Positions 2,696-26,683 are shown, numbered from the stretch's first letter. The stretch is DNA of 28,844 bases from Bacteriovoracia bacterium (GCA_046570105.1 JBKHVI010000038.1:1-28844); one strand, 5' to 3'. Notes: a model not told the origin generated them from the letters alone. Made by a program: numbers and translations.

Positions 2696-2899
2696 GAATC
2701 CCCCTTGTCAGAGGGACACTACCAATAATTTGCCAAATTGGACAATCGGCAGAGTCAGAATCTAGGCTTAAGTGCCTAATATGACAGGTAGGCGAGTAAG
2801 AAAGACAGGCTTTGCCGATCTTGACTCTCAAGAAACTTGATTGAGAGAATAGAGGGGCCCCTGGATGGGGGTGTAAACGATGATAAGGATGTTATCTCT

Positions 2900-4240
2900 A
2901 TGAAAAAATTAAACCATTTGGGCCTCGAAAAAATCCTTCTTTTCTGCGGGTTTACCTTCGCATTAACGCTGGTTGGATTTTGGCAATTTCAGCATCACGC
3001 TAGTGAAGCAGAAAAGTTAGCGCGAGTTCAAAGTGGCGTAGGGACTTGTTTCGCACGAGTCACTCAATCTTTCACAGCTGCCATGATCAAAGAGTTCACA
3101 TCGCCTTATTTGAAGCGCGATTTTATGGCGATGTCGGATGATTGTTTACGTGAAGGCACAAAAACGGCCGGTATTAAGTTGGAAGCTTTCTCAAAGGCCA
3201 ACAAAGTTTTCAATGAGCTCGTTTCGGAAGTTTATTGGTTTCATGAAAAAGTGGTGAAGGTTTTGGCGATCACAGCAGGTAATGCCAACGCTCAAGTTCC
3301 AATGCAAGCGATCACCGAGAAATACACCAAAGTCGAAGGATTGAAGCTTGATCTGCAAGATCAGCTCGATCTCATTAGCTCACAGTTTCGTGAAGCTCGT
3401 TTGCGTGATGAGATTTTAGTCGGCTCGGCGTTTTTCTTTTTTATCATCTCACTGAGCATTTTAGGTCTTCGCGAAGTTTCAAGCCTTCGTCAAAAACGCT
3501 GGATTGAAAATCAGGCCCTCTCATTACTAAATACCGGTCACTCACAAACGGGTGGCATGGTTGATCAGTTAGTACAAAAAGCTCTCAATGGTCAGGGTAT
3601 GTTTGTGACGGCGCAAGTTTTCACTGACTATCACTCGGGAGTGCTCGAGCGCATGGCGATTCGCACTTCGGCGCCTCTTTTCGAAGAGAGAGTTGAAGCG
3701 GCGACTCCCATCGTAGAAGAAGTGACTGAAGTCGCCACACCTCCGATTCAAGCAGAAGCTGAAGCAGAAATCGATGCCCGTAAACTGCTTACTGCTCAAG
3801 CGGTTCGTTTGAAGGCTTCGATGGAAGTGCAAGAAGCAACGATTGTCGCCGATGCGGAAGTTGTCGCTCAGCTCATGCAGGCCTTCGGTCAACGTTTTGC
3901 TTCAGGCAAAGTGAATCTGACTGGCAAGCGCGAAGGTGAGCGTTATGTCGTTTGCGTAGAAGCCAGTGATGTCTGTTTACGTGCTTCAGAGCTTGAATAT
4001 ATTCACGGCAAAACTCATCAAATGGATGGCGTAGACGTGAACGTTATTATCGCCATGGATATTATCCGTGAGGCCAATGTGGATGCAGTCATTCGCAATC
4101 GCATGAATGCCGAGGGAGTGATCATTGGTGCCGAAGCTGTCTTGAGCTTTGCCACTAACTCAAATCGCACTCTGGTCAATGTGGTTCGCGGCAAGAAGAA
4201 AGATCTTGCTCGCACACTAGGGCCGTCGCAGTTTAATTAA
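2900..4240 (+). CDS. Two-TM sensor-like membrane protein with degenerate HATPase-like C-terminal domain (probable pseudo-histidine kinase)
   Basis: ATG 2900 after AAGGA; TM1 ILLFCGFTFALTLVGFW, helical periplasmic region, TM2 ILVGSAFFFFIISLSILG; C-terminal pattern follows HATPase_c but N/G boxes are substituted. Confidence 0.6.
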   Translation: MKKLNHLGLEKILLFCGFTFALTLVGFWQFQHHASEAEKLARVQSGVGTCFARVTQSFTAAMIKEFTSPYLKRDFMAMSDDCLREGTKTAGIKLEAFSKANKVFNELVSEVYWFHEKVVKVLAITAGNANAQVPMQAITEKYTKVEGLKLDLQDQLDLISSQFREARLRDEILVGSAFFFFIISLSILGLREVSSLRQKRWIENQALSLLNTGHSQTGGMVDQLVQKALNGQGMFVTAQVFTDYHSGVLERMAIRTSAPLFEERVEAATPIVEEVTEVATPPIQAEAEAEIDARKLLTAQAVRLKASMEVQEATIVADAEVVAQLMQAFGQRFASGKVNLTGKREGERYVVCVEASDVCLRASELEYIHGKTHQMDGVDVNVIIAMDIIREANVDAVIRNRMNAEGVIIGAEAVLSFATNSNRTLVNVVRGKKKDLARTLGPSQFN

Positions 4241-4243
4241 TTT

Positions 4244-4414
4244 TTTCATTTTCCAACTAGCAAGTCTCATCCTGGGGAAGGTACTGATTTAGAAATCAGT
4301 CTTTTTCCAGGATGAACGACTTATATTCATTAGAAAGCTTATAGCGTCCTCTATCAATCTTAGAATAGAAGTAGGGTTATTTTCGGACTTTACTTGCTAG
4401 TTGGAAAAATGAAA
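4244..4414 (+). ncRNA. Structured element copy 1 (unrecognised family; closing stem plus two hairpins)
   Basis: 17-bp perfect inverted repeat 4249-4265/4392-4408; core 4264-4393 shares five motif blocks with 14839-14973 (reverse strand) with compensatory changes; G.U pairs favour + strand. Confidence 0.75.
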
Positions 4415-4419
4415 TGAAA

Positions 4420-4860
4420 TTAAGGAAACTGCAAATGAAAGGTCACGGGCCCGTCGTTGACGAGTTCGACTTTCATCTCGGCACCGAAGCGGCCTTCTTG
4501 GACGGGAAGGTCGAGGGCGCGTAGGAGTTTGTTGAATTCGGCCCACATGAGACGTGCTTCTCCAGGATGAAGAGAGCGCTCGAAGCTAGGTCTGTGGCCG
4601 CCAGTGCCTTCCCAACTCAAAGTGAACTGACTTACGGAGAGAATTTCGCCTTGGATTTGCGAGATATTCAGATTCATTTTTCCTTCAGCATCACTGAAGC
4701 AGCGTAATTTTGAGATGCGCTCGACAGCGCGGGGGAGAATGTCGCGATGATCACCTTGCTCGAAACATACAAAGAGTAAGAGGCCTTTACCGATTTGTCC
4801 GGTGACTTCTTCATCAACTACCACACGGGCCGAGTCCACCCGCTGGAGAACCACCTTCAC
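4420..4860 (-). CDS. dtd: D-aminoacyl-tRNA deacylase
   Basis: MKVVLQRV start, SQFTL and NDGPVT (Gly-cisPro) motifs; GTG start overlaps the upstream TGA. Confidence 0.97.
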   Translation of the reverse strand: MKVVLQRVDSARVVVDEEVTGQIGKGLLLFVCFEQGDHRDILPRAVERISKLRCFSDAEGKMNLNISQIQGEILSVSQFTLSWEGTGGHRPSFERSLHPGEARLMWAEFNKLLRALDLPVQEGRFGAEMKVELVNDGPVTFHLQFP

Positions 4861-7703
4861 TTGATCTCTCCCATCAGTTGAGTGCGGAAACTCTCTTCTA
4901 GGAATGAGCGTGTGTTGGTGAGAAGCGTGGCAAATACTTGTTGCTGAGCACGTGCTTCTTGCACGAGTGAGCGCACATCACTGAGGCTTGGCAGACGAAG
5001 TGCTTTGAGGACGAGACCGACGGGACGGCCTTTAGTCATATTCAAGATAAACTGAGCTAGGAGCAAGAGCTCTTCGTCAGAGTGTAGTCGGACAACAGGA
5101 CGAGATTCATTAAAGATTTCAATAAACCAAGTTTTGAGATCGCCTTCGACTTGGCCACGTAACTCGATACGAGTGACTGGTTTCTCTAAATCACCTTCTT
5201 CGATTCCTGGAACGAAATCGACATAGATATCAGGATGACCTGGCTTAACGAGTGGGTAGGCTTTTAGCGTCGCCAGACCTGCTTGTAGTGCAGGGTTCTC
5301 GAAATTAATTTTTTGGGCCAAGCGAGTATCGGCCAGCTCTGTTGTGAGCGTCTGCAACGTTTGCTCAAATCCGGCAATTGAGCTTAGTACGTCACAAGCA
5401 TAGCGCGGGAAAATTCCGTTAGAAGACTGACGGAAATGCGTCCAACGCTGATTAAGTTCTTCAGGATGAGTGGCCGTGAGTTTGTTGCTGTCCCAGCGGA
5501 ACATTTCAAGAGTGGTCTGGAGATTCTCGGGCAAGAAATCACCACGGGCAAACCATTTTGGAACAAGCATCTTAGCGAGTTGGCCTTTAACTTTCGTAAC
5601 CGCACCGTTAAAAGTGAGGTTAATAATTTGGCGGCCCACCTGTGACTCAAAATATTTACGAAGAACGTTGGGATCCATACCTTGGTGGCGTGGAGCGATG
5701 ATGAAGTATTGGCACAGCGATGAGCCATTTTCAAAATAGACGGCGCGGAAAGTGCTCACGGGGTGAAGACTTAAGCGTGTTTCTTCGTTTGAGCGGAAAT
5801 TCACCATGAGGAAGGTGGCGCCTTCGCGGCGAAGACCTAGCCCCATGTGAGTGGGAGAGTTCCACTCTTCAGGATCCATTGGACGAATTTCAAAGACAGT
5901 ATCCAAAGGCACGCTAGATGAAAGCAGCGCTTTGAAAAAACGTGGGTGAGTGACGCGCGACTGGTCTTCGTTTGTTGAATGAATCAAATGACCATTCATG
6001 ATGGCGTCTTGGAAGAATTCTAAGCGGAAGCCTTGGCCCCAGTCTTGTTGCCAAAGAGTCGGAGTTTCTTCCAAGTGAGAAAGATAGAAGCCGCGCAAGA
6101 GCTCGGTTATGTCTGAGAAATCTTGGAAGCTTTGCATATCTGCGGTAAAGCGGAACCAAGAGACAGATTCACGGGCCTCTGTGGGAGGAGTCAGGCGTTT
6201 TCTGAAAATATAGAGCCAATTGCCCATTTCGCCTTTGCCCTTCACACCTTCCATGTCGAAGACGGCCTTCAATTCGAGATTTTGCAATACACCTTCCAGG
6301 CGTTCGCGCTGGCTGGGAGCAAAAAGGCTCTTTGATGCCAGCACAAACATCCAACCACCATTTTTTAGTGTTGAAGTTTGTTCATCAAGTTGCGCCATCA
6401 TCCAGTGATAAGGATTGTTTTTTGGCAAATGCGTGAGGTTAACGATTGAGCGATCGTAAGTCGATGTTGAGAATGGAGTCTCTAGCGTTCCTAGCCGAGC
6501 AGGGTTAGCGCCTTTGCGGTTTTGGTAATGGCAGCCCATGACTTTGCTAATGAAGGCGACGGGTTCTTGTTGTTGATAAGGAGAGATCTCTGCCAAGAAT
6601 GTGATGAATTGCAGTTCATTGAGCATCTTGAGGAAGAGGCCTGAATCAAATTCTTTGCCTTTGAAATCAGGGCAGAGGACTTGGTCCCACTTGAGTTCTT
6701 TGTTGTTGTGTTGCGCGAGCCAGTGAGAGAGCGCCAGTGACTCCATGTAGTCACCACTGTATTTACAGCTGATGATTTCCAGGTCGTCAGGAGTGAGGAA
6801 CTTCTGAGTGGCGTTTGTCTCTTTACTTTCAACCCAGAGAGGGAAGTTGATCATCAGTGAATTAAGGAAGAGGCCAAAATTCAAATGGGAGAGGGCGTGT
6901 GAATAAATGCGATTAGCGTTTTCTTCTTGAACACGCGGTGAAGTGAGTTTGACGAGTTCCGCGATCGAAATATCACCAGCGTTACTCATCCATTCAGACA
7001 TCTGAGTTGAGAACTCTTCACCTGGGCGATACCAGCTAAAAATATTTGATTCCATCACGCGTGCTTTCAATTCAAAGCGCGTGCCTGAACGGAAAACTTG
7101 CGAGAGCCAGTGATTAGGGTTGTGAGCTGAGCGGCAGCCGGCCTCGAGATGAGCTTCGCGAGCCAGCACTTTAATAAAACGCAGCTTGAAGAGTGTGATA
7201 ACTGCCACACGAGAAGCGAAAATTTCCAAGAAGCGCGTGAGTGTTGCTGGACGCTCAGAGGCTTCAGCGCGCACACACTGCCAAAAACGAGAAAGATCAT
7301 CGAATTCCGTGCAATGCAGATTCTGATTATTCGCATAGGCGAGAAATTCGTTATAGATACCGAGTTTCAATGAGCGGTTAAACTCCTGCGTACTCATCAA
7401 GCGAATGACATCGTTCTTTAAGGTATCAACTAAGCGAATATAGCGACTGGATGTTTTTGAAGGCAGCGATTCACCACGCCAACCTTGTGTGAGAAAGCGA
7501 GCTGGCTGGAAACCTTGGCTCACTTCTTGGCTCACGGGCATTTTTATCGCGCGATGACTGTTGAACGTCGGAAATTTATTTTTGGTTTGTGCGGGCAGCG
7601 GACACACCTCGACACCGTTGGTTCGAGTGGGTGTACCCCAGTCCTGAACTACATCAATGTCCTTTGAAAGCCATTGGCCGACAAAGAAAGGTTTATTACT
7701 CAA
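4857..7703 (-). CDS. 948-aa protein with degenerate N6-adenine DNA methyltransferase-like (type IIG/HsdM-like) central fold
   Basis: VLCPDFKGKEFDSGLFL at motif I position; YDRSIVN...NNPY; LKNGGWMFVLASKSLF...RERL...LKAVFDM...LYIFRK follows the motif VI-VIII pattern; no canonical DPACGSG or NPPY. Confidence 0.55.
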   Translation of the reverse strand: MSNKPFFVGQWLSKDIDVVQDWGTPTRTNGVEVCPLPAQTKNKFPTFNSHRAIKMPVSQEVSQGFQPARFLTQGWRGESLPSKTSSRYIRLVDTLKNDVIRLMSTQEFNRSLKLGIYNEFLAYANNQNLHCTEFDDLSRFWQCVRAEASERPATLTRFLEIFASRVAVITLFKLRFIKVLAREAHLEAGCRSAHNPNHWLSQVFRSGTRFELKARVMESNIFSWYRPGEEFSTQMSEWMSNAGDISIAELVKLTSPRVQEENANRIYSHALSHLNFGLFLNSLMINFPLWVESKETNATQKFLTPDDLEIISCKYSGDYMESLALSHWLAQHNNKELKWDQVLCPDFKGKEFDSGLFLKMLNELQFITFLAEISPYQQQEPVAFISKVMGCHYQNRKGANPARLGTLETPFSTSTYDRSIVNLTHLPKNNPYHWMMAQLDEQTSTLKNGGWMFVLASKSLFAPSQRERLEGVLQNLELKAVFDMEGVKGKGEMGNWLYIFRKRLTPPTEARESVSWFRFTADMQSFQDFSDITELLRGFYLSHLEETPTLWQQDWGQGFRLEFFQDAIMNGHLIHSTNEDQSRVTHPRFFKALLSSSVPLDTVFEIRPMDPEEWNSPTHMGLGLRREGATFLMVNFRSNEETRLSLHPVSTFRAVYFENGSSLCQYFIIAPRHQGMDPNVLRKYFESQVGRQIINLTFNGAVTKVKGQLAKMLVPKWFARGDFLPENLQTTLEMFRWDSNKLTATHPEELNQRWTHFRQSSNGIFPRYACDVLSSIAGFEQTLQTLTTELADTRLAQKINFENPALQAGLATLKAYPLVKPGHPDIYVDFVPGIEEGDLEKPVTRIELRGQVEGDLKTWFIEIFNESRPVVRLHSDEELLLLAQFILNMTKGRPVGLVLKALRLPSLSDVRSLVQEARAQQQVFATLLTNTRSFLEESFRTQLMGEIK

Positions 7704-7843
7704 AGGTGGAACCTCTGCTTATACAAAAAGTCTTAACTCAAAAAAAATCATTGAATTTCAATATTTTAGGTGAGGTGTATTAGAACTGGAGCGATTTTCT
7801 TTGTCATGAAAAAAAATCTCTCATTTCCTGATTTTAGGCCGGC

Positions 7844-7871
7844 TAAAGGTTTGAAGTTGCGAGACCGATAA
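7844..7871 (+). promoter_or_regulatory. FliA/sigma28-like promoter
   Basis: TAAA-N16-ACCGATAA, about 65 nt upstream of ATG 7937; spacer is one nt longer than consensus. Confidence 0.5.
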
Positions 7872-7936
7872 GCCAGATCAGATGTAAGGGTCTTCCCTTA
7901 AACAAGATATTTTTGCGTCAAACGCAGGAGTTTGGG

Positions 7937-8395
7937 ATGGAAAAAGGTTTTAACGATCAAGAGCTAGCAGACATCATGAGCGAGATCGAAAATCTCGAGA
8001 AAGAGTTTGCTGATGAACCCGAGGTGGCAAAAGCCGCTCCTGAGGCATCACATCAAGAAGAAGCCGAAGAGATCGATCACACAGATCCAGAAGTTTTGCG
8101 TGAGTTGGCGCATAAGCCCATCGAAGAATCTGTTCCTACCAAAGTTCATCATCACGAAGAAAAGGTCGTTCATATGAGCAAGCCAGCTGCAGAAAAAAAA
8201 CATTCTGATGCACCAGCGCCGGTTAAATTAAATTTTCAAGTGGCCGGTCAAATGAACCTGCTTCTAGGTTTTGAAGTGAATGGTCAAAGCTTGTCGCTCT
8301 CTGTTTCTGAAGAGGCTTTTGTTATTGAGATGGAGTCCGGCGCGACTTTCTCACTCCCACTCGCATCTTCGAAAGCAGCTAAGAAAGCGGCCTAA
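7937..8395 (+). CDS. Hypothetical acidic protein (N-terminal helix, disordered linker, small C-terminal beta domain)
   Basis: AGGAG RBS at 7926, ATG 7937; stop overlaps the rsmD start (TAATG). Confidence 0.8.
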   Translation: MEKGFNDQELADIMSEIENLEKEFADEPEVAKAAPEASHQEEAEEIDHTDPEVLRELAHKPIEESVPTKVHHHEEKVVHMSKPAAEKKHSDAPAPVKLNFQVAGQMNLLLGFEVNGQSLSLSVSEEAFVIEMESGATFSLPLASSKAAKKAA

Positions 8396-8982
8396 TGGCC
8401 ATTCGTCTCTTGGGAGGACGTGCCCGTGGGTTCGTCCTCCAAACACCCCCCGAAAATATCACTCGCCCCACCGCCATTCTCCTTAAGAGACGCCTTTTTG
8501 ATTGGCGCCAAGATTGGAGTGGAGAATGCTTTATTGATTTGTGTGCTGGCAGTGGCAGCATGGGACTTGAAGCCCTTTCAAGAGGTGCGGCACACGTATG
8601 GTTGAACGAAATAAACAAAACGGCCTTTCGCGTTTTAGAGAAGAATGTAGAGCTTTGGAAAAAACAGCAAGGCCTAGAAGAGCAAGAACTCACGCTGACT
8701 CAATTAGATTTTAGAAAAGTGCTTGAGAAGCTTCATACCTCTGGTCAATTTGCTGGCAAAGATGTGGTGATTTATTTTGATCCGCCCTATGAACAAAAAG
8801 AGCTCTATGCGGCTTTTAGGCAGGCCTCACAGGGACTTCCCATGGAAGTGTGGGTCGAAAGTGACGATCTCAAAGGCGTTAAGCTCGCTGAAGAAAGAGA
8901 GCACTTGAGTAGTGTCGTCAAGGAGGTCACGCAAGGTTCACATTGGGTGCTGGTAGGACGGCCTCTTGTTGCGCTAAAATAG
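8395..8982 (+). CDS. rsmD: 16S rRNA m2G966 methyltransferase RsmD family
   Basis: IRLLGG..RG, TRPT, DLCAGSGSMGLEALSRGA, FDPPY; adjacent to coaD. Confidence 0.93.
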   Translation: MAIRLLGGRARGFVLQTPPENITRPTAILLKRRLFDWRQDWSGECFIDLCAGSGSMGLEALSRGAAHVWLNEINKTAFRVLEKNVELWKKQQGLEEQELTLTQLDFRKVLEKLHTSGQFAGKDVVIYFDPPYEQKELYAAFRQASQGLPMEVWVESDDLKGVKLAEEREHLSSVVKEVTQGSHWVLVGRPLVALK

Positions 8983-9011
8983 CAGTAGAACCTCTACAAG
9001 GATGTTACCCC

Positions 9012-9497
9012 TTGCAAAAAAAGTGCGCTCTTTACGCTGGCACCTTTGATCCATTCACTAATGGGCATTTGGACATTGTTCAAAGGGCCATCGGTTTATT
9101 TGATGAGGTCACAGTTCTCGTTGCGGTTTCACCCAATAAAAAACCAACACTCTCTCAGTCTCGTCGCGTGGAGTTGTTGAAAGAACTTTTTCAACACGAG
9201 AAAAAAGTTAAGATCGATAGTTGGGATGGTTTGGTCGTTGAGTATGCGCGCCAACACAATATCGGCCATATCGTGCGCGGTCTTCGTCCGACGGGAGATT
9301 TCGAAGTTGAGTTTCAAATGGCTTCGATGAATCGCAAAATTAATTCTCAACTTGATACTGTTTTTTTAATGACTAGTGAGAAGCTATTCTACATTTCTTC
9401 ATCGCTCGTTAAAGAAGTCTGGCAGCATGGCGGTGATATCTCTATGTTTGTTCCACCACTGATTTTGGATGAAATGCAGAAGCTAAAAGGGAAGTAA
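9012..9497 (+). CDS. coaD: Phosphopantetheine adenylyltransferase
   Basis: YAGTFDPFTNGHLDI, RGLR, ISSSLVKEV; TTG 9012 after AAGGA. Confidence 0.97.
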   Translation: MQKKCALYAGTFDPFTNGHLDIVQRAIGLFDEVTVLVAVSPNKKPTLSQSRRVELLKELFQHEKKVKIDSWDGLVVEYARQHNIGHIVRGLRPTGDFEVEFQMASMNRKINSQLDTVFLMTSEKLFYISSSLVKEVWQHGGDISMFVPPLILDEMQKLKGK

Positions 9498-9501
9498 GTT
9501 C

Positions 9502-10713
9502 ATGTTGCTAAGTTCACGCGTTAAAGGTGTTGCCGATAGTATTACCCAACAACTCAATGAGAAAGCTCAGGCGATGGCCGAAGAGGGGCATATCATTTAC
9601 AACCTTTCGGCAGGGCAACTTCCGATCAAACCGCCGCAAGAATTTATTGAAAAAATTCAGCAGCAGCTTAACTTCTTAAAGAGTTATCAGTATTCACCTG
9701 TCGCTGGTATCAGTGAGTTACGAAAAAAAATTCTCAATCTTCATAAAGAAGAGCGCAAAGTTTCGACTGAAGGCCTCGACGTCATTTTGTCGAACGGATC
9801 GAAGCAATCGATCTATATTGCGCTCGGTGCTCTGCTTGATCCAGGAGACGAAGTGATTTTGCTTGCGCCTTATTGGGTGAGCTACCCAGAGATGGTGAAA
9901 TTCTGGGGCGGCATTCCCGTCACAGTGAAGAGTAATGTCTTTGATGCTTTTAGTCCTGCGCTAGAAGATATCGCTAAGGTCATCACTCCTCGCACGCGCG
10001 CGATTATTGTTAACAGTCCTAATAATCCGGCGGGAGTTCATTATCCAGAAAAATGGGTGAAGGCCTTTGCAGCTTTAATGAAAGAGCATCCAGATATGTG
10101 GATTCTCTCCGATGAAGTTTATGCGGATTTAAGTTATTTTGATCCGGCACCAACATACTCTTATCAACATGACCCTGAGCTGGTGGCCCGCACGATGGTG
10201 TTTGGTGCTATTTCAAAAACACTGGCGGCCACTGGTCTTCGCATGGGGTGGACGATTGCACCTAAGAATGCTGTGCAAGCGATGGGGCGAATTCAAGGTC
10301 AGGCGACCTCGGGGCCATCGGCATTGATACAGCGTGCGCTGGTTGATTTTGATTTTTCTAAAGTCACAAATTTTTTAGCACCTGTGAAAGTGCATCTTCG
10401 TCGCTCTGCTAATCTAGTGCGTGAAAAGTTGCGAGACGCTGAATTACAAAATCTTTGGTACCAATCCCATTCGGCTTTTTACTTCATGCTCGACTTCAGT
10501 CGTACGCCGGTGTTCGCGCGTTTTGCTGGTGAGCACCCTGAACAAGACTATTCCAAGGAAATTTGTCAGGAATTGCTGGAGAAATATGGCATTGCTTTAG
10601 TGCCAGGTGCCGATTTCGGATTACCTAATTCCGGTAGGATGAGTCTCACGATGGAAGAAGTTCCCTTCCAAGAAGCGCTCAATCGTCTGGTCACATTTCT
10701 CAAGAGTACCTGA
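9502..10713 (+). CDS. PLP-dependent class I/II aminotransferase (aspartate aminotransferase-like)
   Basis: PYWVSY, NSPNNPAG, SDEVY, SKTLAATGLRMGW (PLP lysine). Confidence 0.95.
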   Translation: MLLSSRVKGVADSITQQLNEKAQAMAEEGHIIYNLSAGQLPIKPPQEFIEKIQQQLNFLKSYQYSPVAGISELRKKILNLHKEERKVSTEGLDVILSNGSKQSIYIALGALLDPGDEVILLAPYWVSYPEMVKFWGGIPVTVKSNVFDAFSPALEDIAKVITPRTRAIIVNSPNNPAGVHYPEKWVKAFAALMKEHPDMWILSDEVYADLSYFDPAPTYSYQHDPELVARTMVFGAISKTLAATGLRMGWTIAPKNAVQAMGRIQGQATSGPSALIQRALVDFDFSKVTNFLAPVKVHLRRSANLVREKLRDAELQNLWYQSHSAFYFMLDFSRTPVFARFAGEHPEQDYSKEICQELLEKYGIALVPGADFGLPNSGRMSLTMEEVPFQEALNRLVTFLKST

Positions 10714-10781
10714 AGGGAAGATTTCTCCTGGGTAGGTCTAGCTAACCCCATGGCATTACAATAAATGCTGGGGTATTGCCC

Positions 10782-11759
10782 ATGGTAAAAGTCCGCACAA
10801 TCTCAACACTTTTTATTCTTTGGCTAACGCTGATGTTGGCCGGATGTTCATCGTCCAAAGAACAACAAGTCACTGATGCCATCGATGAAGCGCTTTATTA
10901 TCTTTCAAAGCCAAGTCCAGATTGTCAGAAAGCCATTGATGCACTTGAGGATGTGGGTAATCAAAAAAACAATCCACGTTATATTCAAGCACTCGCTTCG
11001 GCCTATGCCTGTCGAGGAAATTTCAGTGAGCTCAATTTGTTCGATGACATTGATGCCATCAGTGGTGATTTCTCCGATATCCTGACTTCACTGGCCACTC
11101 TTGAGATGGCCCAGCAAACAGAGGCGGAGTCTGATGAGTTTCTCGACGTGCAACGAGCGATTGAGGTGATTCTCTATAGCGGTGGAAAGTCAGCTCCCTC
11201 TGCGCTTGAAACCAAAGAAATTTTTGGTACTCGCCATGGCACCAATCTCAATATGCAGGCGCTCTACATGGTGTTGGTGCAGCTGGGTCGTTTTTCAAAC
11301 TGGTATGGCAGCACTGATTCAACTGGTAAAAAAGGTCTCTCAACAGGAGTCCAAGTCCCGGCCTGTTTTTTTGATTATGAACCGGCCGCCTTGGCAGTTG
11401 CGACCGCTCATGGTGGTGGTAACGCGTGTTCGGCAGGCAATCTTGGTAATACCGATTTAGATTATACCGGCGTCACCACAACTGTGGCCCAACGTCGTCT
11501 CTGCCAAGGGGCGATGCTGATGAATAATTTATTTGATCTCTTGGAGCACATCACATTTCCCGACAGTGATTCGATTGGAGAGTTAGGCTCACTTTATTCA
11601 ACAGTTGAACCCTATATCACCGCACTTTATGCGCTTGATCCTGATATGGAAGAGTTCGTTGAAAATCTCGATCAAACCACCTGTGAAGAATTGGTCGCTG
11701 CTGATGATGATGTGATTCAACTTTATTTTGCCTCTCTCTTCGAGGGAGGTCTGCCCTGA
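10782..11759 (+). CDS. Lipoprotein, helical/TPR-like N-terminal half, multiple Cys
   Basis: Signal MVKVRTISTLFILWLTLMLAGC with lipobox LAGC; directly upstream of a beta-barrel gene. Confidence 0.85.
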   Translation: MVKVRTISTLFILWLTLMLAGCSSSKEQQVTDAIDEALYYLSKPSPDCQKAIDALEDVGNQKNNPRYIQALASAYACRGNFSELNLFDDIDAISGDFSDILTSLATLEMAQQTEAESDEFLDVQRAIEVILYSGGKSAPSALETKEIFGTRHGTNLNMQALYMVLVQLGRFSNWYGSTDSTGKKGLSTGVQVPACFFDYEPAALAVATAHGGGNACSAGNLGNTDLDYTGVTTTVAQRRLCQGAMLMNNLFDLLEHITFPDSDSIGELGSLYSTVEPYITALYALDPDMEEFVENLDQTTCEELVAADDDVIQLYFASLFEGGLP

Positions 11760-12872
11760 TCAGATGGATCCTCTTGGCGCTATTCTCATTTAATGTCTGG
11801 AGTTATGAAGCTCCCATGGGCCTGCGTTCTCCCAAAGGCCTATTGATGGGTGATGCCTGGACAGCGGTTAACACTGACGAGTACACATTGTTTTATAATC
11901 CCGCTTCAATGGGACGCCATCAGCGTGATTTTACCTTTTATCCATTTAATCCACAGATCACGGGCACTAATCCCTTGGGAGATATGGATCGCTTTGAAGA
12001 TTTTCCCGACGATCCCAATGGGGCAGCGGATGTCTTGATGAATTATCCGGTGCATATTGGTGCTAACATCGCGCCAGGTTTTAAGTTATTTAACTTTGGA
12101 ATTAACTTCATCGCTTCTGAGCAAGCCGACATGCTCCTTCGAAATAAAATCCATCCCACACTCGATGTAGATTATCGCTCTGATCGTGGATTTATTATGG
12201 GCGTCGGAGTTCCACTGGGACCCCGGCGTTTAGGGAGCAAAAGTATTTCCGGCCAACAGACCACTATAGGTGTGGGTGCTAAATATATTAAGCGTCGAGG
12301 CATTCATGACGCTTATGCACTAACAGGGACTGATTTACTCGACATTATTGAGAATAGCGGTGAGACCAGCGACATCATCGAGAGCTTAGGTATCGTCGAA
12401 GGTGATGGTTGGGGTTTTGATGCTGGCTTTGAACATGTTGTGCGGCAAGGGCCCAATCAATGGGTTTTTGGTTTAGCAGCATTGGATATTACTGACACAG
12501 AATTTGATGTGCCTGAAAACGAAGAAATGCGCACAGTGGCACCTAATAAAGCGCAAGTGAACTTAGGCATGGCCTGGCTTTATCGCACGAGCCTCATGCG
12601 GGGAAGTTTCGCTCTTGATGTCAGAGGACTGACAGAAGAAATGGAAATGATGGAGCGCCTTCGCTTGTGGAGTTGAGCTAGGAATTCCTGGCATTAGCTT
12701 ACTCGGTGGCATTAATTCAGGTTATTTCTCCTATGGCGCCGCCATAGATGTCGGAATTTTGAAACTCACCGCGGGATTTTATGGCGCCGAAGTTGGTGGC
12801 GCTTATCGTCGCACCCAGAGTAAGCGATTCGTCATTTATCTAAGCTTATTCGACTTTTCATTTGATGCATGA
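11756..12872 (+). pseudogene. Outer-membrane beta-barrel (FadL/PorV/TraF-like superfamily) interrupted by a +1 frameshift near 12668
   Basis: MGDAWTAVNTDEYTLFYNPA N-terminal motif; skipping one base continues as GVELGIPGISLLGGINSGYFSYGAAIDVG...SKRFVIYLSLFDFSFDA* to 12872. Confidence 0.8.
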
Positions 12873-12932
12873 GCGTTCTATGATTTGAAGCATGGAGGCC
12901 AATGGACGGCCCACCTATGCCCAGGAGCGCTT

Positions 12933-14252
12933 TTGAACAAGACTTTCATTCTGGACACCAACGTCCTCTTGCTAGATCCCACTGCTATTAATAAGTTCGG
13001 CCCGCAAAATAAAGTCTTCATCCCACTCACAGTGGTTGAAGAACTCGATAAATTTAAAAAAGATCAAAACGAAATCGGCCGCAACGCTCGTTACTTCGCC
13101 CGTCTGATTGATGGACTGCGCTCGAAGGGTTCATTGATGCAAGGTGTGCCACTCGAAAACGGTGGCATGCTGGTTATTAGCGTTGTGAAAGATCGCCGAG
13201 TCGCTCAAGGCGAAGGCCTCAATCCACTCGTTAACGACAACTTGATTCTTGCCAGTGCCGTCGCTCTTAAAGAAGCCGGCGAAAACGTCACGCTGATTAC
13301 TAAAGACATTAACCTTCGCCTCAAAAGTGATGCTGTTGGTGTTAAAGCGGAAGATTACGAAACCACCGATATTTCGATTGATGAGCTCTACTCGGGTCAG
13401 CGAAGTGTCGAGATGGATCTTGAGCGCATCGAACTGTTTGAAAAAGAGCGCTTCCTGAAAATTGAAGCAGGTGAGATTCCTAGTATCTATCCGAACGAAT
13501 ATTTAATTCTTACAGATCGCAATAACCCATTTAAAAAAGCGCTTGGACGCTACCATCTTCGCAAAGGTGGAATTGTTCCTCTCATTCGCCCGAAAGAAGG
13601 GGTGTGGGGAATTCATCCAAAGAACATCGAGCAGCAATTTGCGCTTGATGCGCTTTTGAATAACGAAATCAACTTGGTGTCACTGGTTGGTAAAGCGGGT
13701 ACCGGTAAAACTCTTCTCGCGATTGCCGCGGGTCTTGAGTGTGCCATTACCAAACAAAATTATTCTCGCGTACTGGTTTCTCGTCCGATCGTTCCGATGG
13801 GACGTGACTTGGGTTTCTTGCCAGGAGATATCAACGAGAAGCTTGGCCCTTGGATGCAGCCGATTTTTGATAACATTGATTTTCTCTTCGGCAATCAGCG
13901 CGCTCGTAACGAGATGACAACTTGGGATGAACTCATTAACCAAGGTCTCTTGCACGTTGAGCCTTTGACTTACATTCGTGGTCGCTCACTTCCAGGCCAG
14001 TTCATGATCGTCGATGAAAGCCAAAACTTAACTCCTCATGAGATCAAGACCATCATCACACGTGCGGGTGAAGGAACTAAGATTGTTCTCACGGGTGACT
14101 CCGAGCAGATCGATAACCCTTATCTTGATTCTTTGAATAACGGTTTGGTTTATTGTATCGATCGTCTCAAAGGCGAAGACATTGTTGCCCATGCGAAACT
14201 CCAAGTGGGTGAGCGATCACCACTCTCAGAGATTGCTTCTAAGCTTCTATGA
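12933..14252 (+). CDS. PIN domain-PhoH family ATPase (PhoH2/YlaK-like)
   Basis: PIN: LDTNVLL, VVEELD, NDNLIL, TKDINLR; PhoH: GKAGTGKT, LGFLPGD, RGRS, IVDESQN; TTG 12933 after AGGAG. Confidence 0.95.
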   Translation: MNKTFILDTNVLLLDPTAINKFGPQNKVFIPLTVVEELDKFKKDQNEIGRNARYFARLIDGLRSKGSLMQGVPLENGGMLVISVVKDRRVAQGEGLNPLVNDNLILASAVALKEAGENVTLITKDINLRLKSDAVGVKAEDYETTDISIDELYSGQRSVEMDLERIELFEKERFLKIEAGEIPSIYPNEYLILTDRNNPFKKALGRYHLRKGGIVPLIRPKEGVWGIHPKNIEQQFALDALLNNEINLVSLVGKAGTGKTLLAIAAGLECAITKQNYSRVLVSRPIVPMGRDLGFLPGDINEKLGPWMQPIFDNIDFLFGNQRARNEMTTWDELINQGLLHVEPLTYIRGRSLPGQFMIVDESQNLTPHEIKTIITRAGEGTKIVLTGDSEQIDNPYLDSLNNGLVYCIDRLKGEDIVAHAKLQVGERSPLSEIASKLL

Positions 14253-14824
14253 GTAGTAGGGAGCGTGGTTATCAACGGGCCCATTTAAGGGCCCCGTATC
14301 AAGAGCCCGTCTTATTCGGTGATGAAGATTTCATTCACAAGGCCCGCTCTCTGAATATTTCAGAGGGCGGCATCTTGCTCGATGAGGTTCCTGAGTTTCC
14401 CGCCGCTGATGAAGTGCCTTTGCTGCTTCATCTTCCCAGCTATCCTTATTTTAAAAATTTCAATTTGATTAAGATGCAAACCTTCACACGCGATCTTTTT
14501 CCCACCAAAGTCATTCGTGCCAAGGGAAGAATGGTTCGTCGTATCGGTGAGACGACTTCAGTCGATGATGTGTTTCGCCCACGCTTTGGTATTCAGTTCA
14601 GTCAGCTAGGTGATCACGAGCAAAAATATATTAGTGAATACGTTTCCGTCTTTGCCAGCAATCTCATTTATCTACAAATGCTGATTGATTCGTGGAATAC
14701 CGACGAAGACATCCGTCTCAAAACCCGCGCCCTGGCGGATATTTTAGGTTATCAAAAAATCGAAAAAATCTCTGAACTGCGCCGTCAAATCGGGCACGAT
14801 TATCAATCTCTGCAGTGGGACTGA
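14249..14824 (+). CDS. PilZ domain protein
   Basis: RxxxR (RAHLR) and NxSxxG (NISEGG) c-di-GMP motifs, FGIQF strand; ATGA overlap with the PhoH gene. Confidence 0.85.
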   Translation: MSSRERGYQRAHLRAPYQEPVLFGDEDFIHKARSLNISEGGILLDEVPEFPAADEVPLLLHLPSYPYFKNFNLIKMQTFTRDLFPTKVIRAKGRMVRRIGETTSVDDVFRPRFGIQFSQLGDHEQKYISEYVSVFASNLIYLQMLIDSWNTDEDIRLKTRALADILGYQKIEKISELRRQIGHDYQSLQWD

Positions 14825-15004
14825 GACTCAATTCACCTGTAAAGCCCGAAGCATAGAAACATTTCATATCACTTTTCTGCTTGAGGGCGCCTCTAGCTTT
14901 CTAATTTTTCAATTTTGATTCATTCTGGCATTGATTATCGAGTCTAAAATAGATCCGTGCGCCAGAATGAGACAGGTGAATTGAGTGTCTTATCCAGTGG
15001 GACT
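14813..15004. repeat. 10-bp direct repeat CAGTGGGACT flanking element copy 2
   Basis: Exact copies at 14813-14822 and 14995-15004. Confidence 0.85.
14826..14986 (-). ncRNA. Structured element copy 2 (same family as 4244-4414)
   Basis: 15-bp perfect inverted repeat 14826-14840/14972-14986; 10-bp stem TCATTCTGGC/GCCAGAATGA; same five motif blocks as copy 1 on the opposite strand. Confidence 0.75.
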
Positions 15005-15533
15005 AGAGTTTTTCCGAGAAAGTATCACACTCTTTTTTGTGAGCAGGATTATTAAATGAGCGAGCTTTTAAGACTGTGACTTTGCAATTGCGCTCGGGGA
15101 AAGAAAGTTTTTCGATAGCGGCATCGCTCTCACGCTTAACTCCATCAACTCCGAAGTGACATTCAATACGTGCTTCTCCCAACAGGATGCGCGAGTCTTT
15201 ATCGATCAACTGAGCATTATAGACATCTTCATAGTAGGCCCAGTAGCCCACAAAGCGGGGAGTTTTAAGTTGTGTTGATTCCACTAGAGTCATGTCGGGA
15301 GATAGTTTTTCAATATCTGTGGGAAGACTCTTTTTTAGAGAGGCGAGTCCCTGAGTATTTCCCCAGTAACAGAGGGCGTGACGTGACAGTGTTTTTTTCA
15401 AGTCTTCAAGATGATTTGCTTGTACGGCCCTGTGAGCACGGATCATCATCTCTGCCGGATTATTTTTGAAACCGAAATTTGCTCGCTGACAAGCAAACGC
15501 GAGTACAGCGAGAGATAAAAAAACCCACTTCAT
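15003..15533 (-). CDS. Lipoprotein, hypothetical
   Basis: MKWVFLSLAVLAFAC signal with lipobox; four further Cys. Confidence 0.8.
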   Translation of the reverse strand: MKWVFLSLAVLAFACQRANFGFKNNPAEMMIRAHRAVQANHLEDLKKTLSRHALCYWGNTQGLASLKKSLPTDIEKLSPDMTLVESTQLKTPRFVGYWAYYEDVYNAQLIDKDSRILLGEARIECHFGVDGVKRESDAAIEKLSFPERNCKVTVLKARSFNNPAHKKECDTFSEKL

Positions 15534-15601
15534 ACTTAATGCCTTTTTTGAAAGGCGATTATGCATGAAGTGGGTTTCACATTGTTTAAACAGAGTAAAA
15601 T

Positions 15602-26607: not shown

Positions 26608-26683
26608 GGGCGTTTAGCTCAGCTGGGAGAGCGCTACCCTTACAAGGTAGATGTCGGCGGTTCGATCCCGTCAACGCCCACCA
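26608..26683 (+). tRNA. tRNA-Val(TAC)
   Basis: 76-nt cloverleaf; acceptor GGGCGTT/AACGCCC; anticodon arm CTACC-CT TAC AA-GGTAG; GTTCGA T-loop; encoded CCA. Confidence 0.99.

Follow-up and report, generated by a model that had tools for sequence, protein, structure and literature searches.

The stretch of DNA analysed here, referred to as the window, comprises 28,844 nucleotides of a Bacteriovoracia bacterium (GCA_046570105.1, JBKHVI010000038.1:1-28844) and carries two copies of a structured non-coding element, one on each strand. Both are probably members of a new family of structured mobile repeats that are non-autonomous, read as DNA or on both strands, and similar to miniature inverted-repeat transposable elements (MITEs) and to REPINs, the hairpin-forming doublets of repetitive extragenic palindromic (REP) sequences. 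A REP/MITE-like element had been one of several options in the initial annotation of this DNA, and it is the one favoured by 32 dispersed copies, a patchy distribution within one genus, empty sites and target duplications. The agreement between the copies lies far beyond chance, and the observation is real and highly non-random. Most likely, the family is restricted to a few species of the Bacteriovoracaceae and is mobile or was so once.

The two window copies have five blocks of 12, 10, 11, 8 and 12 nt (53 nt in total) in common, located within 4264-4393 (+) and 14973-14839 (-), and the four differences between them form two compensated pairs, namely TCATCCTGG/CCAGGATGA versus TCATTCTGG/CCAGAATGA and GTCC/GGAC versus GCCC/GGGC. 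Realignment bore out this arrangement as originally described. The positions of the open reading frames (ORFs) also agree with the earlier statement that both copies fill gaps between convergent genes (2837-4240 (+) and 4420-4860 (-) for copy 1, 14249-14824 (+) and 15003-15566 (-) for copy 2). The spacers measure 31 and 33 nt. Pairing in the closing stems is perfect over 17 bp in copy 1 and 15 bp in copy 2, including the invariant G-C and T-A pairs; their self-complementarity had been described correctly, but the arms of the two copies are not unrelated to each other, as had been assumed. Across the family, the arms vary around one consensus, tCAAATTCrCCC / GGGyGAATTTGa, with compensated changes.

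The initial annotation was right in regarding the element as real, but not in knowing two copies only. Its own genome, hereafter G000, is a metagenome-assembled genome (MAG) of 3.0 Mb in 131 contigs with a completeness of 88%; other genomes, contigs and loci are given as G, C and L numbers where they have to be told apart. A BLAST search of G000 with copy 1, which revealed several relatives, and three subsequent rounds of nhmmer yielded 36 matches, 32 full-length and four partial, with the copies lying singly over 25 contigs. The repeat has a size of 160-175 bp and consists of a core of about 130 nt and variable inverted arms, which give at least nine contiguous pairs directly adjoining the core in 29 of the 32 copies. 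Five blocks are near-invariant in the family (GTCTCATCCTGGCGCA, GCCAGGATGA, TAGAAAGCT, GGCGTCCTCAAG and GCTTCGGACTTTAC), and the stretches between them look almost random in the alignment. In this short form of the repeat, variation is greatest in the arms and tips and conservation is greatest in the interior.

A covariance model, as suggested in the initial annotation, revealed further homologues in four of the 11 genomes of the genus, with 34 matches in G000, 19 in G007, 11 in G006 and five in G003, and three copies are present in G041, which lies outside the sampled relatives. With 68-150 first-look candidates scored per genome, the model did not find the repeat in the other seven genomes of the genus or in 30 genomes of other genera, nor in four of the negative genomes at a second look in which more candidates were scored. 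An exact-pattern scan of 185,579 species, each represented by one genome, returned only 20 loci, all in four MAGs labelled Bacteriovoracaceae or Bacteriovoracia. No such repeat is described in the excerpts of the literature on MITEs in Bdellovibrio and on repeats in Bacteriovorax, Peredibacter and Halobacteriovorax, a search whose scope was journals available without subscription.

RNAalifold, applied to a MAFFT alignment of the family, predicted a closing stem P0 that encloses two hairpins, P1 and P2, with conserved unpaired linkers, and the covariance model was built from that alignment. Aligning 73 matches to the model left 58 distinct copies for the pairing statistics. In these, 97.5% of 1548 cells form standard pairs, and 21 of the 27 pairs are changed on both sides (240 double-change cells). 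None of 500 shuffles reached the observed values of pairing or double changes, and sliding the 3' partners by 1-3 columns reduced pairing to 28-49%. The alignment of the 58 copies is fitted to the structure of the model, a bias in favour of the fold; the independent MAFFT alignment agrees with it. Covariation is found in all 14 modelled pairs of P0. In P1, 99.6% of the cells are paired and four of nine pairs show double changes. P0 extends inward by an invariant T-A pair (57/57 copies), and P1 is extended by a C-G pair in 51 of the 58. The two hairpins differ in sequence, stand in direct and not in inverted order and have only an RTCC/GGAY foot in common. A local GAGG-CGT-CCTC hairpin in place of the long-range P2 was rejected, as double changes are missing from it and mismatches in it are left uncompensated, whereas P2 covaries. 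Covariation over 58 copies supports the earlier proposal of a three-way junction selected for its structure, with conserved unpaired linkers.

The three helices comprise 1495 Watson-Crick cells, 14 G.T, eight A.C and 31 other mismatches, and the mean folding energies of the two strands are nearly the same, with -54.4 versus -54.5 kcal/mol under RNA parameters and -29.1 versus -29.2 under DNA parameters. Owing to this almost pure Watson-Crick pairing and the equal folding of both strands, there is no sign of which strand matters, and the covariation signal comes from a strand-symmetric DNA repeat. The G.U pairs formerly taken to favour the strand as written do not do so family-wide; that argument was drawn from the variable interior of a single copy.

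Related genomes revealed filled and empty alleles of the same sites. Window site 1 is empty in G005, G002 and G003, and window site 2 in G005, G001 and G002. At site 1, the convergent genes of G005 overlap in a TTAA stop, and AATTAA stands on each side of the repeat in G000. At site 2, G005 has a single CAGTGG..CTAGAG with an overlapping CTAG stop, and the repeat of G000 is flanked by CAGTGGGACT-GAG and CAGTGGGACTAGAG, a duplication of 13-14 bp, perhaps 19. At a site on C44, TTTAAGATTCCCTAA is present once in G007, where the site is empty, and twice in G000, a duplication of 15 bp. One metagenome contig of a related strain runs from 4234 straight on to 4418, six letters being assignable to either side, and two other metagenome contigs have 4239-4419 replaced by 182 other letters, representing a diverged copy. 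The region around C10:30579 is replaced in G007, and the site does not read as simply empty.

Direct repeats of 9-13 nt flank six of the 32 copies of G000, each matched by at most one of 200 shuffles, and in three of the six the duplication extends to 14-15 nt with one mismatch. Further flanking repeats were found in other genomes, with 13 nt at L063 and 10 nt at L067. The remaining 26 copies have no surviving flanking repeat of at least 9 nt. The last codons and the stop codon of a flanking gene lie within every preserved flanking repeat, which shows that the duplication rebuilt both gene ends; because they contain these gene ends, the preserved duplications have survived and the others have decayed.

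Gene contexts were taken from a simple, crude ORF caller. They place 21 of the 32 copies of G000 between convergent genes, ten in tandem contexts (four along the orientation of the genes, six opposed) and one between divergent genes, against a genome-wide background of 500 convergent junctions among 2777 (18%; binomial p = 4e-9). Both stop codons lie within 15 nt in nine of the 21 convergent copies. Convergent pairs are very tight in G000, with a median gap of -4 nt and 289 of 500 overlapping or abutting, and in the overlapping ones a palindromic TTAA or CTAG often serves as stop codon on both strands. Most likely, the copies were inserted at the only places that this very compact genome tolerates.

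The closest pair of paralogues in G000 is only 84% identical, which argues against recent amplification in this genome. Flanks map beside a G000 copy for five of ten G007 loci, one or two of nine G006 loci and one of three G003 loci, and orthologous copies cluster as pairs in the tree. In four orthologous pairs of G000 and G007, differences affect 2 of 179 columns in the conserved blocks (1.1%), 13 of 112 in the arms (11.6%) and 55 of 340 in the variable parts (16.2%), compared with 4.0%, 1.9% and 30.6% at codon positions 1, 2 and 3 of the flanking ORFs. The arm differences between orthologues are mostly compensated within the pair. One pair of G000 and G006 differs at one of 44 block columns, with the variable columns saturated (50/84). 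In their rate of change the blocks equal second codon positions, and even the 'variable' parts are slower than third positions; the resident copies are therefore under purifying selection. The 'swappable segments' of the initial annotation were rejected, since the variable segments diverge gradually between orthologues, the ordinary divergence of old copies. In G000 the family appears to be old, its amplification at an end, and in sister species its long form, described below, has amplified recently.

These data show the following course of events. Copies entered at the 3' ends of genes, typically at overlapping stop codons of convergent genes. Where preservation is best, insertion duplicated 13-15 bp and possibly as many as 19, which left each of the two genes with its end. 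Many copies were then inherited vertically under strong purifying selection, with changes in the stems being compensated. As the fold is strictly Watson-Crick, strand-symmetric and free in orientation, it would be read as DNA, either as a single-stranded hairpin or as a cruciform, or would form in transcripts of both strands. The conserved unpaired blocks would be the putative binding site of a trans-acting protein; their conservation, equal to that of second codon positions, points to a protein partner and not merely to a hairpin. By analogy with systems of REPINs and REP-associated tyrosine transposases (RAYTs), it may be weakly inferred that this protein is a Y1/HUH enzyme of the RayT or IS200-like type.

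A Y1_Tnp-like gene family with ten matches, encoding proteins of about 210 aa whose relatives are named RayT by JGI, is present in G000. Its unit of about 620-660 bp consists of the gene and about 57 nt upstream, copies are 80-95% identical, and terminal hairpins are not obvious. The family occurs in all five carriers of the repeat and in one of seven element-free genus mates (G008). A mini-copy of the repeat, consisting of P0 and P1 only, lies over the last codons of one of these genes in G000 and is also found in G007; a paralogue on C72, 93% identical, is without the mini-copy and has a different C-terminus. Members of the IS200/IS605 family and their palindrome-associated derivatives (PATEs) insert without duplication and need no closing stem. 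The repeat resembles them in two sub-terminal hairpins that a Y1 dimer could putatively read on single-stranded DNA, and the genome has multi-copy IS200-like genes, but the ends of the IS200-like unit of about 620 bp show no similarity to the repeat by eye. Since the genomes compared are kin, the gene family is widespread without the repeat and known Y1 enzymes make no duplication, this link is a weak one. On C8 of G000, a canonical RAYT gene is flanked by a different REP and not by this repeat.

Other enzymes were considered as well. An IS3/IS481-like rve transposase was rejected because it is present in the element-free G001, was not found in G006, which has 11 copies of the repeat, and has no matching inverted ends. 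Its gene in G000 encodes 416 aa and is present in several full or partial copies, no inverted ends were found, and it is adjoined by what we take from the translations to be a RelE/HigA-like toxin-antitoxin pair. Casposons insert at gene 3' ends. Their Cas1-type integration reportedly generates target duplications of about 14-15 bp (Hickman et al. 2020). Insertion site and length of the duplication are alike, but a search of the 11 genomes of the genus for Cas1 (PF01867) gave no match, with control genomes matched, and the repeat is a non-coding unit of 170 bp without casposon-like terminal repeats. A tyrosine integrase was likewise met among the candidates. The 2027-bp contig C117 of G000 is a near-perfect self-palindrome (98.7% over 2 kb) with an IstB-like IS21 helper ATPase and probably represents an IS21-family element folded back on itself in the assembly.

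A long form of the repeat is represented by nine of the 26 copies outside G000 (G007, G006, G003 and G041), which have an extra outer inverted repeat of 20-25 bp beyond the arms, found in none of the 32 copies of G000. Its tips read CTGG.../CTGCC... with ...CCAG/GGCAG. The terminal branches leading to these copies are the shortest of the tree, which marks them as the recently amplified ones. The outer repeat of G007 resembles the REP hairpins around the canonical RAYT gene on C8, and in a metagenome strain an outer-repeat-like sequence directly follows the stop codon at site 2. The repeat may ride inside a REPIN-like element or may itself be a target for one. The REP-like hairpins on C8 have a CCAACACAC / GTGTGTTGG stem, and inverted doublets of such a hairpin are present at two more places in G000. 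The three G041 loci L148, L149 and L150 have identical arms of 19-20 bp and widely differing hairpin interiors, the opposite of G000, in which the arms vary.

For Correia elements, the target duplication is TA. In classical MITEs, according to excerpts of Delihas 2011 (PMC3184786), to which the further statements on MITEs, SPRITE and bcr1 refer, the terminal repeats correspond to those of an autonomous insertion sequence (IS), and the duplication is short and of fixed length, such as 9 bp in Chunjie. Our repeat is small, non-coding and multi-copy and has terminal inverted repeats, but a search for an IS matching these found none, the short form is variable at its tips, and the target duplications exceed those of MITEs in length and are uneven. 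Alike are, nonetheless, the small size, inverted ends, direct repeats, stable folds and empty and filled sites of the non-coding MITEs (Correia/nemis, Nezha, Chunjie) and SPRITE, the latter also being biased to the 3' ends of convergent genes. The element bcr1 of the Bacillus cereus group, with about 155 bp, a cruciform-like closing stem, two stem-loops, a fold kept by compensatory changes and flanking direct repeats, is similar in architecture only; it has 5-bp repeats, is reported to be transcribed with an RNA-level fold and belongs to a different phylum, in contrast to 13-15 bp and strictly Watson-Crick pairing here.

REPINs, in the excerpts of Bertels and Rainey 2011 (PMC3116915), show compensatory changes in their hairpins and long vertical persistence, both of which we find in our repeat. 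Also alike are short non-coding palindromic repeats in extragenic positions with a predicted fold of single-stranded DNA or RNA, an alternative 'clover' fold with two hairpins and Y1 transposase-like genes in the same genomes. REPIN ends, however, are two inverted copies of one REP around a short spacer that varies, whereas our repeat lacks such copies, its ends vary, its core of 130 nt is conserved, and P1 and P2 are not inverted copies. The duplications of 13-15 bp have no counterpart in the excerpts of the REPIN/RAYT literature examined, in which the term 'target site duplication' does not occur, and an arrangement of our repeat flanking a single-copy RAYT gene was not found. REPINs and bcr1 are the closest described analogues.

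Several points weigh against a mobile, protein-read repeat family. No autonomous partner was identified, and with G000 being 88% complete a missing IS is possible. The Y1-like family is widespread in element-free Bacteriovoracaceae such as Peredibacter and in metagenomes, besides the element-free G008, and to our knowledge Y1/HUH transposition makes no target duplication, whereas the duplications here are clear. These range from 6 to 15 nt, perhaps 19, which fits poorly to a single transposase with fixed stagger, and the short form lacks conserved ends, as 0-11 bases of variable sequence separate its arms from the duplication. Some of the 'empty' sites may be secondary losses: site 2 of G007 holds a remnant of one arm and about ten further bases, which suggests that the original duplication reached 19 nt, and at least three orthologous sites have decayed by deletion. 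G000 also has core-less hairpins with family-type arms and a loop of 20-21 nt where G007 or G006 have full copies. Because they are rare, we read them as probable internal deletions; insertion of the core into pre-existing arm hairpins was rejected, as a genome-wide scan for core-less hairpins with family arms gave one strict case. Other deletion forms are known at three loci of G000. The selection test comprises four close and two distant pairs in which both copies are still recognisable, and the negative genome searches, given the number of candidates scored, mean 'not found' and not absence. A look-up of 14700-15100 among sequencing runs returned no RNA run, and the repeat may also have a role at the RNA level.

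Why the copies are retained is a separate question, and an answer compatible with the mobile family is that they act as strand-symmetric modules at transcript ends, stopping or protecting 3' ends or insulating convergent genes. We consider this possible, if on the doubtful side. The prevalence of convergent contexts, nine of them tight around both stops, suits it, as does the fact that a separate terminator would not fit between the genes of the many overlapping or abutting convergent pairs; strict Watson-Crick pairing would keep the fold on both strands, and resident copies are under purifying selection. For REP, SPRITE and Correia repeats, activity at transcript 3' ends is reported in the excerpts of PMC3184786. 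Yet no U-tract follows the stem, and matches to a terminator-like consensus in 4000-15300 are no more frequent than by chance (10 versus 12.0 expected, one of them inside copy 2). A pure hairpin would leave the conservation of the unpaired blocks unexplained, and the convergent bias may arise from harmful insertions elsewhere in the compact genome.

A bolder extension of the mobile-family reading, put forward tentatively and rather unlikely in our view, would be a new type of long-lived resident DNA element. It would consist of a three-way-junction module whose blocks are read by a dedicated protein, perhaps a RayT-like Y1 enzyme, and would move as a folded hairpin, with the stem base and not a terminal sequence defining its ends. 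A stretch of 13-19 bp would be duplicated on integration, and the host would keep the element to separate convergent genes that would overlap without it. Such a duplication would match no described prokaryotic transposition pathway, Cas1 and reverse transcription set aside.

That the repeat is a classical selfish MITE, moved in trans by a DDE transposase via its terminal inverted repeats and conserved through recent descent, seems improbable to us. Small size, lack of coding capacity, inverted arms, flanking direct repeats and empty and filled sites would all suit it, as would the conserved tips and short terminal branches of the long form (G007, G003, G006, G041) and the IS3/IS481-like rve transposase genes of the genome. 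In the short form, however, it is the arms and tips that vary and the interior that is conserved, and closest paralogues in G000 of only 84% identity nevertheless have near-invariant blocks. A DDE_Tnp_1 gene was not found, the rve transposase does not track the repeat, and the codon-like constraint of the orthologues is unlike selfish decay.

The leading idea of the initial annotation, a dedicated structured RNA that serves as ribozyme or guide scaffold or binds a ligand or protein, is very unlikely. A three-way junction with strong covariation and invariant unpaired linkers is what had suggested it, and a conserved G.T apposition adjoining P1 in 48 of the 58 copies would form a wobble pair only on the written strand. 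In the helices, however, wobbles are no commoner than other mismatches, both strands fold alike, the copies show no orientation bias, and a scan of 4000-15300 found no consensus promoter in either window copy. The comparison of both window copies and others with Rfam, a check named at the outset, gave no family: the window has no match at the gathering score beyond a tRNA gene, and six copies searched at E up to 1 returned three chance-level matches far below gathering. Thirty-two copies, target duplications, a patchy distribution and gradually diverging variable segments do not suit such an RNA either, and the genes beside the window copies, encoding a D-Tyr-tRNA deacylase, a PilZ-domain protein and two products without Pfam match, are unrelated housekeeping genes and have no common theme.

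Duplications of about 13-15 bp are typical of the insertion of long and short interspersed nuclear elements (LINEs and SINEs). A SINE-like retroelement, with the folded RNA copied by target-primed reverse transcription, would account for duplications of this variable length and for the extra junction bases but is hardly credible, as there is no 3' tail, strand signal or wobble excess, and RVT_1 (PF00078) was not found in G000, G003 (97% complete) or G006 and does not track the repeat (six in G004 and one in G002, both element-free, and one in G007). An integron attC site was rejected as well: the attC core motif is GTTRRRY/RYYYAAC (R'/R''), no such cores are visible in the family alignment, and the single copies over 25 contigs form no cassette arrays.

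Table 1. Positions of the repeat copies, their parts and further features in the window, in G000 and in G007.
Feature	Position	Strand	Remark
Copy 1, whole repeat between two AATTAA direct repeats	window 4241-4417	+	covariance model R1 match, 130.8 bits
Left direct repeat AATTAA	window 4235-4240		contains stop codon of ORF 2837-4240
Right direct repeat AATTAA	window 4418-4423		contains stop codon (complement of 4420-4422) of ORF 4420-4860
Copy 1, closing stem P0, 5' strand	window 4249-4265	+	partner 4392-4408; perfect 17-bp complement
Copy 1, closing stem P0, 3' strand	window 4392-4408	+	
Copy 1, hairpin P1	window 4267-4315	+	foot TCATCCTGG (4267-4275) with CCAGGATGA (4307-4315)
Copy 1, unpaired linker	window 4316-4345	+	conserved TTAGAAAGCT at 4330-4339; conserved block of family alignment
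Copy 1, hairpin P2	window 4346-4388	+	foot GTCC (4346-4349) with GGAC (4385-4388)
Copy 2, whole repeat	window 14826-14994	-	includes 8 extra bases (14987-14994) between arm and duplication; covariance model R1 match, 151.6 bits
Target duplication beside ORF 14249-14824	window 14813-14825		+ strand CAGTGGGACT-GAG; contains last codons and stop of that gene
Target duplication, second copy	window 14995-15008		+ strand CAGTGGGACTAGAG; overlaps stop of ORF 15003-15566; single in G005
Copy 2, closing stem P0, 5' strand	window 14972-14986	-	partner 14826-14840
Copy 2, hairpin P1	window 14920-14970	-	TCATTCTGG (14970-14962) with CCAGAATGA (14928-14920)
Copy 2, hairpin P2	window 14844-14888	-	GCCC (14888-14885) with GGGC (14847-14844)
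tRNA gene	window 26608-26680	+	only Rfam match at gathering score in the window
Core-less hairpin	G000 C9:43467-43491		
Core-less hairpin	G000 C13 ~34110-34180		13-nt flanking duplication intact on both sides
Deletion form (mini-copy)	G000 C33:17846-17939	-	P0 and P1 only; over last codons of a Y1-like gene
Mini-copy in G007	G007 C362:1226-1343		P0 and P1 only; over last codons of a Y1-like gene
Deletion form	G000 C6:70434		
Deletion form	G000 C9:15582		
Y1_Tnp-like gene	G000 C4:84151-84762		
Y1_Tnp-like gene	G000 C14:21271-21885		
Y1_Tnp-like gene	G000 C33:17232-17864		
Y1_Tnp-like gene	G000 C59:8169-8777		
Y1_Tnp-like gene	G000 C62:8277-8882		
Y1_Tnp-like gene	G000 C62:13130-13722		
Y1_Tnp-like gene	G000 C63:12843-13448		
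Y1_Tnp-like gene	G000 C72:5643-6260		
Y1_Tnp-like gene	G000 C2:36490-37101		
Canonical RAYT gene	G000 C8:19745-20080		
REP-like hairpins flanking RAYT	G000 C8:18430-20231		
Inverted doublet of REP-like hairpin	G000 C15:46673/46723		
Inverted doublet of REP-like hairpin	G000 C61:6419/6455		
rve transposase gene	G000 C21:32719-33969		416 aa
rve transposase, partial copy	G000 C30:31366-32031		
rve transposase, partial copy	G000 C113		
rve transposase, partial copy	G000 C21:13597-13767		

For the search for new RNAs, the two window copies are a caution, since covariation and invariant linkers in two copies mimicked a novel ribozyme or riboswitch. Repeats such as REP, REPIN, MITE and bcr1 are common, and how they move and persist is mostly unsettled; the family described here bears on both with unusually clean evidence. 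Its set of features, with variable tips, a conserved interior, duplications of 13-15 bp and no Cas1, reverse transcriptase or IS4/IS5-type DDE gene (DDE_Tnp_1) found, is without a single known mechanism. One and the same site may be filled in one sister species, empty in another or reduced to a remnant, and long duplications rebuild two overlapping gene ends. Together with blocks that evolve as slowly as second codon positions and with compensated changes in the arms, these site states and rebuilt ends show that a multi-copy, 'selfish-looking' repeat is under constraint at the level of the host or of a partner.

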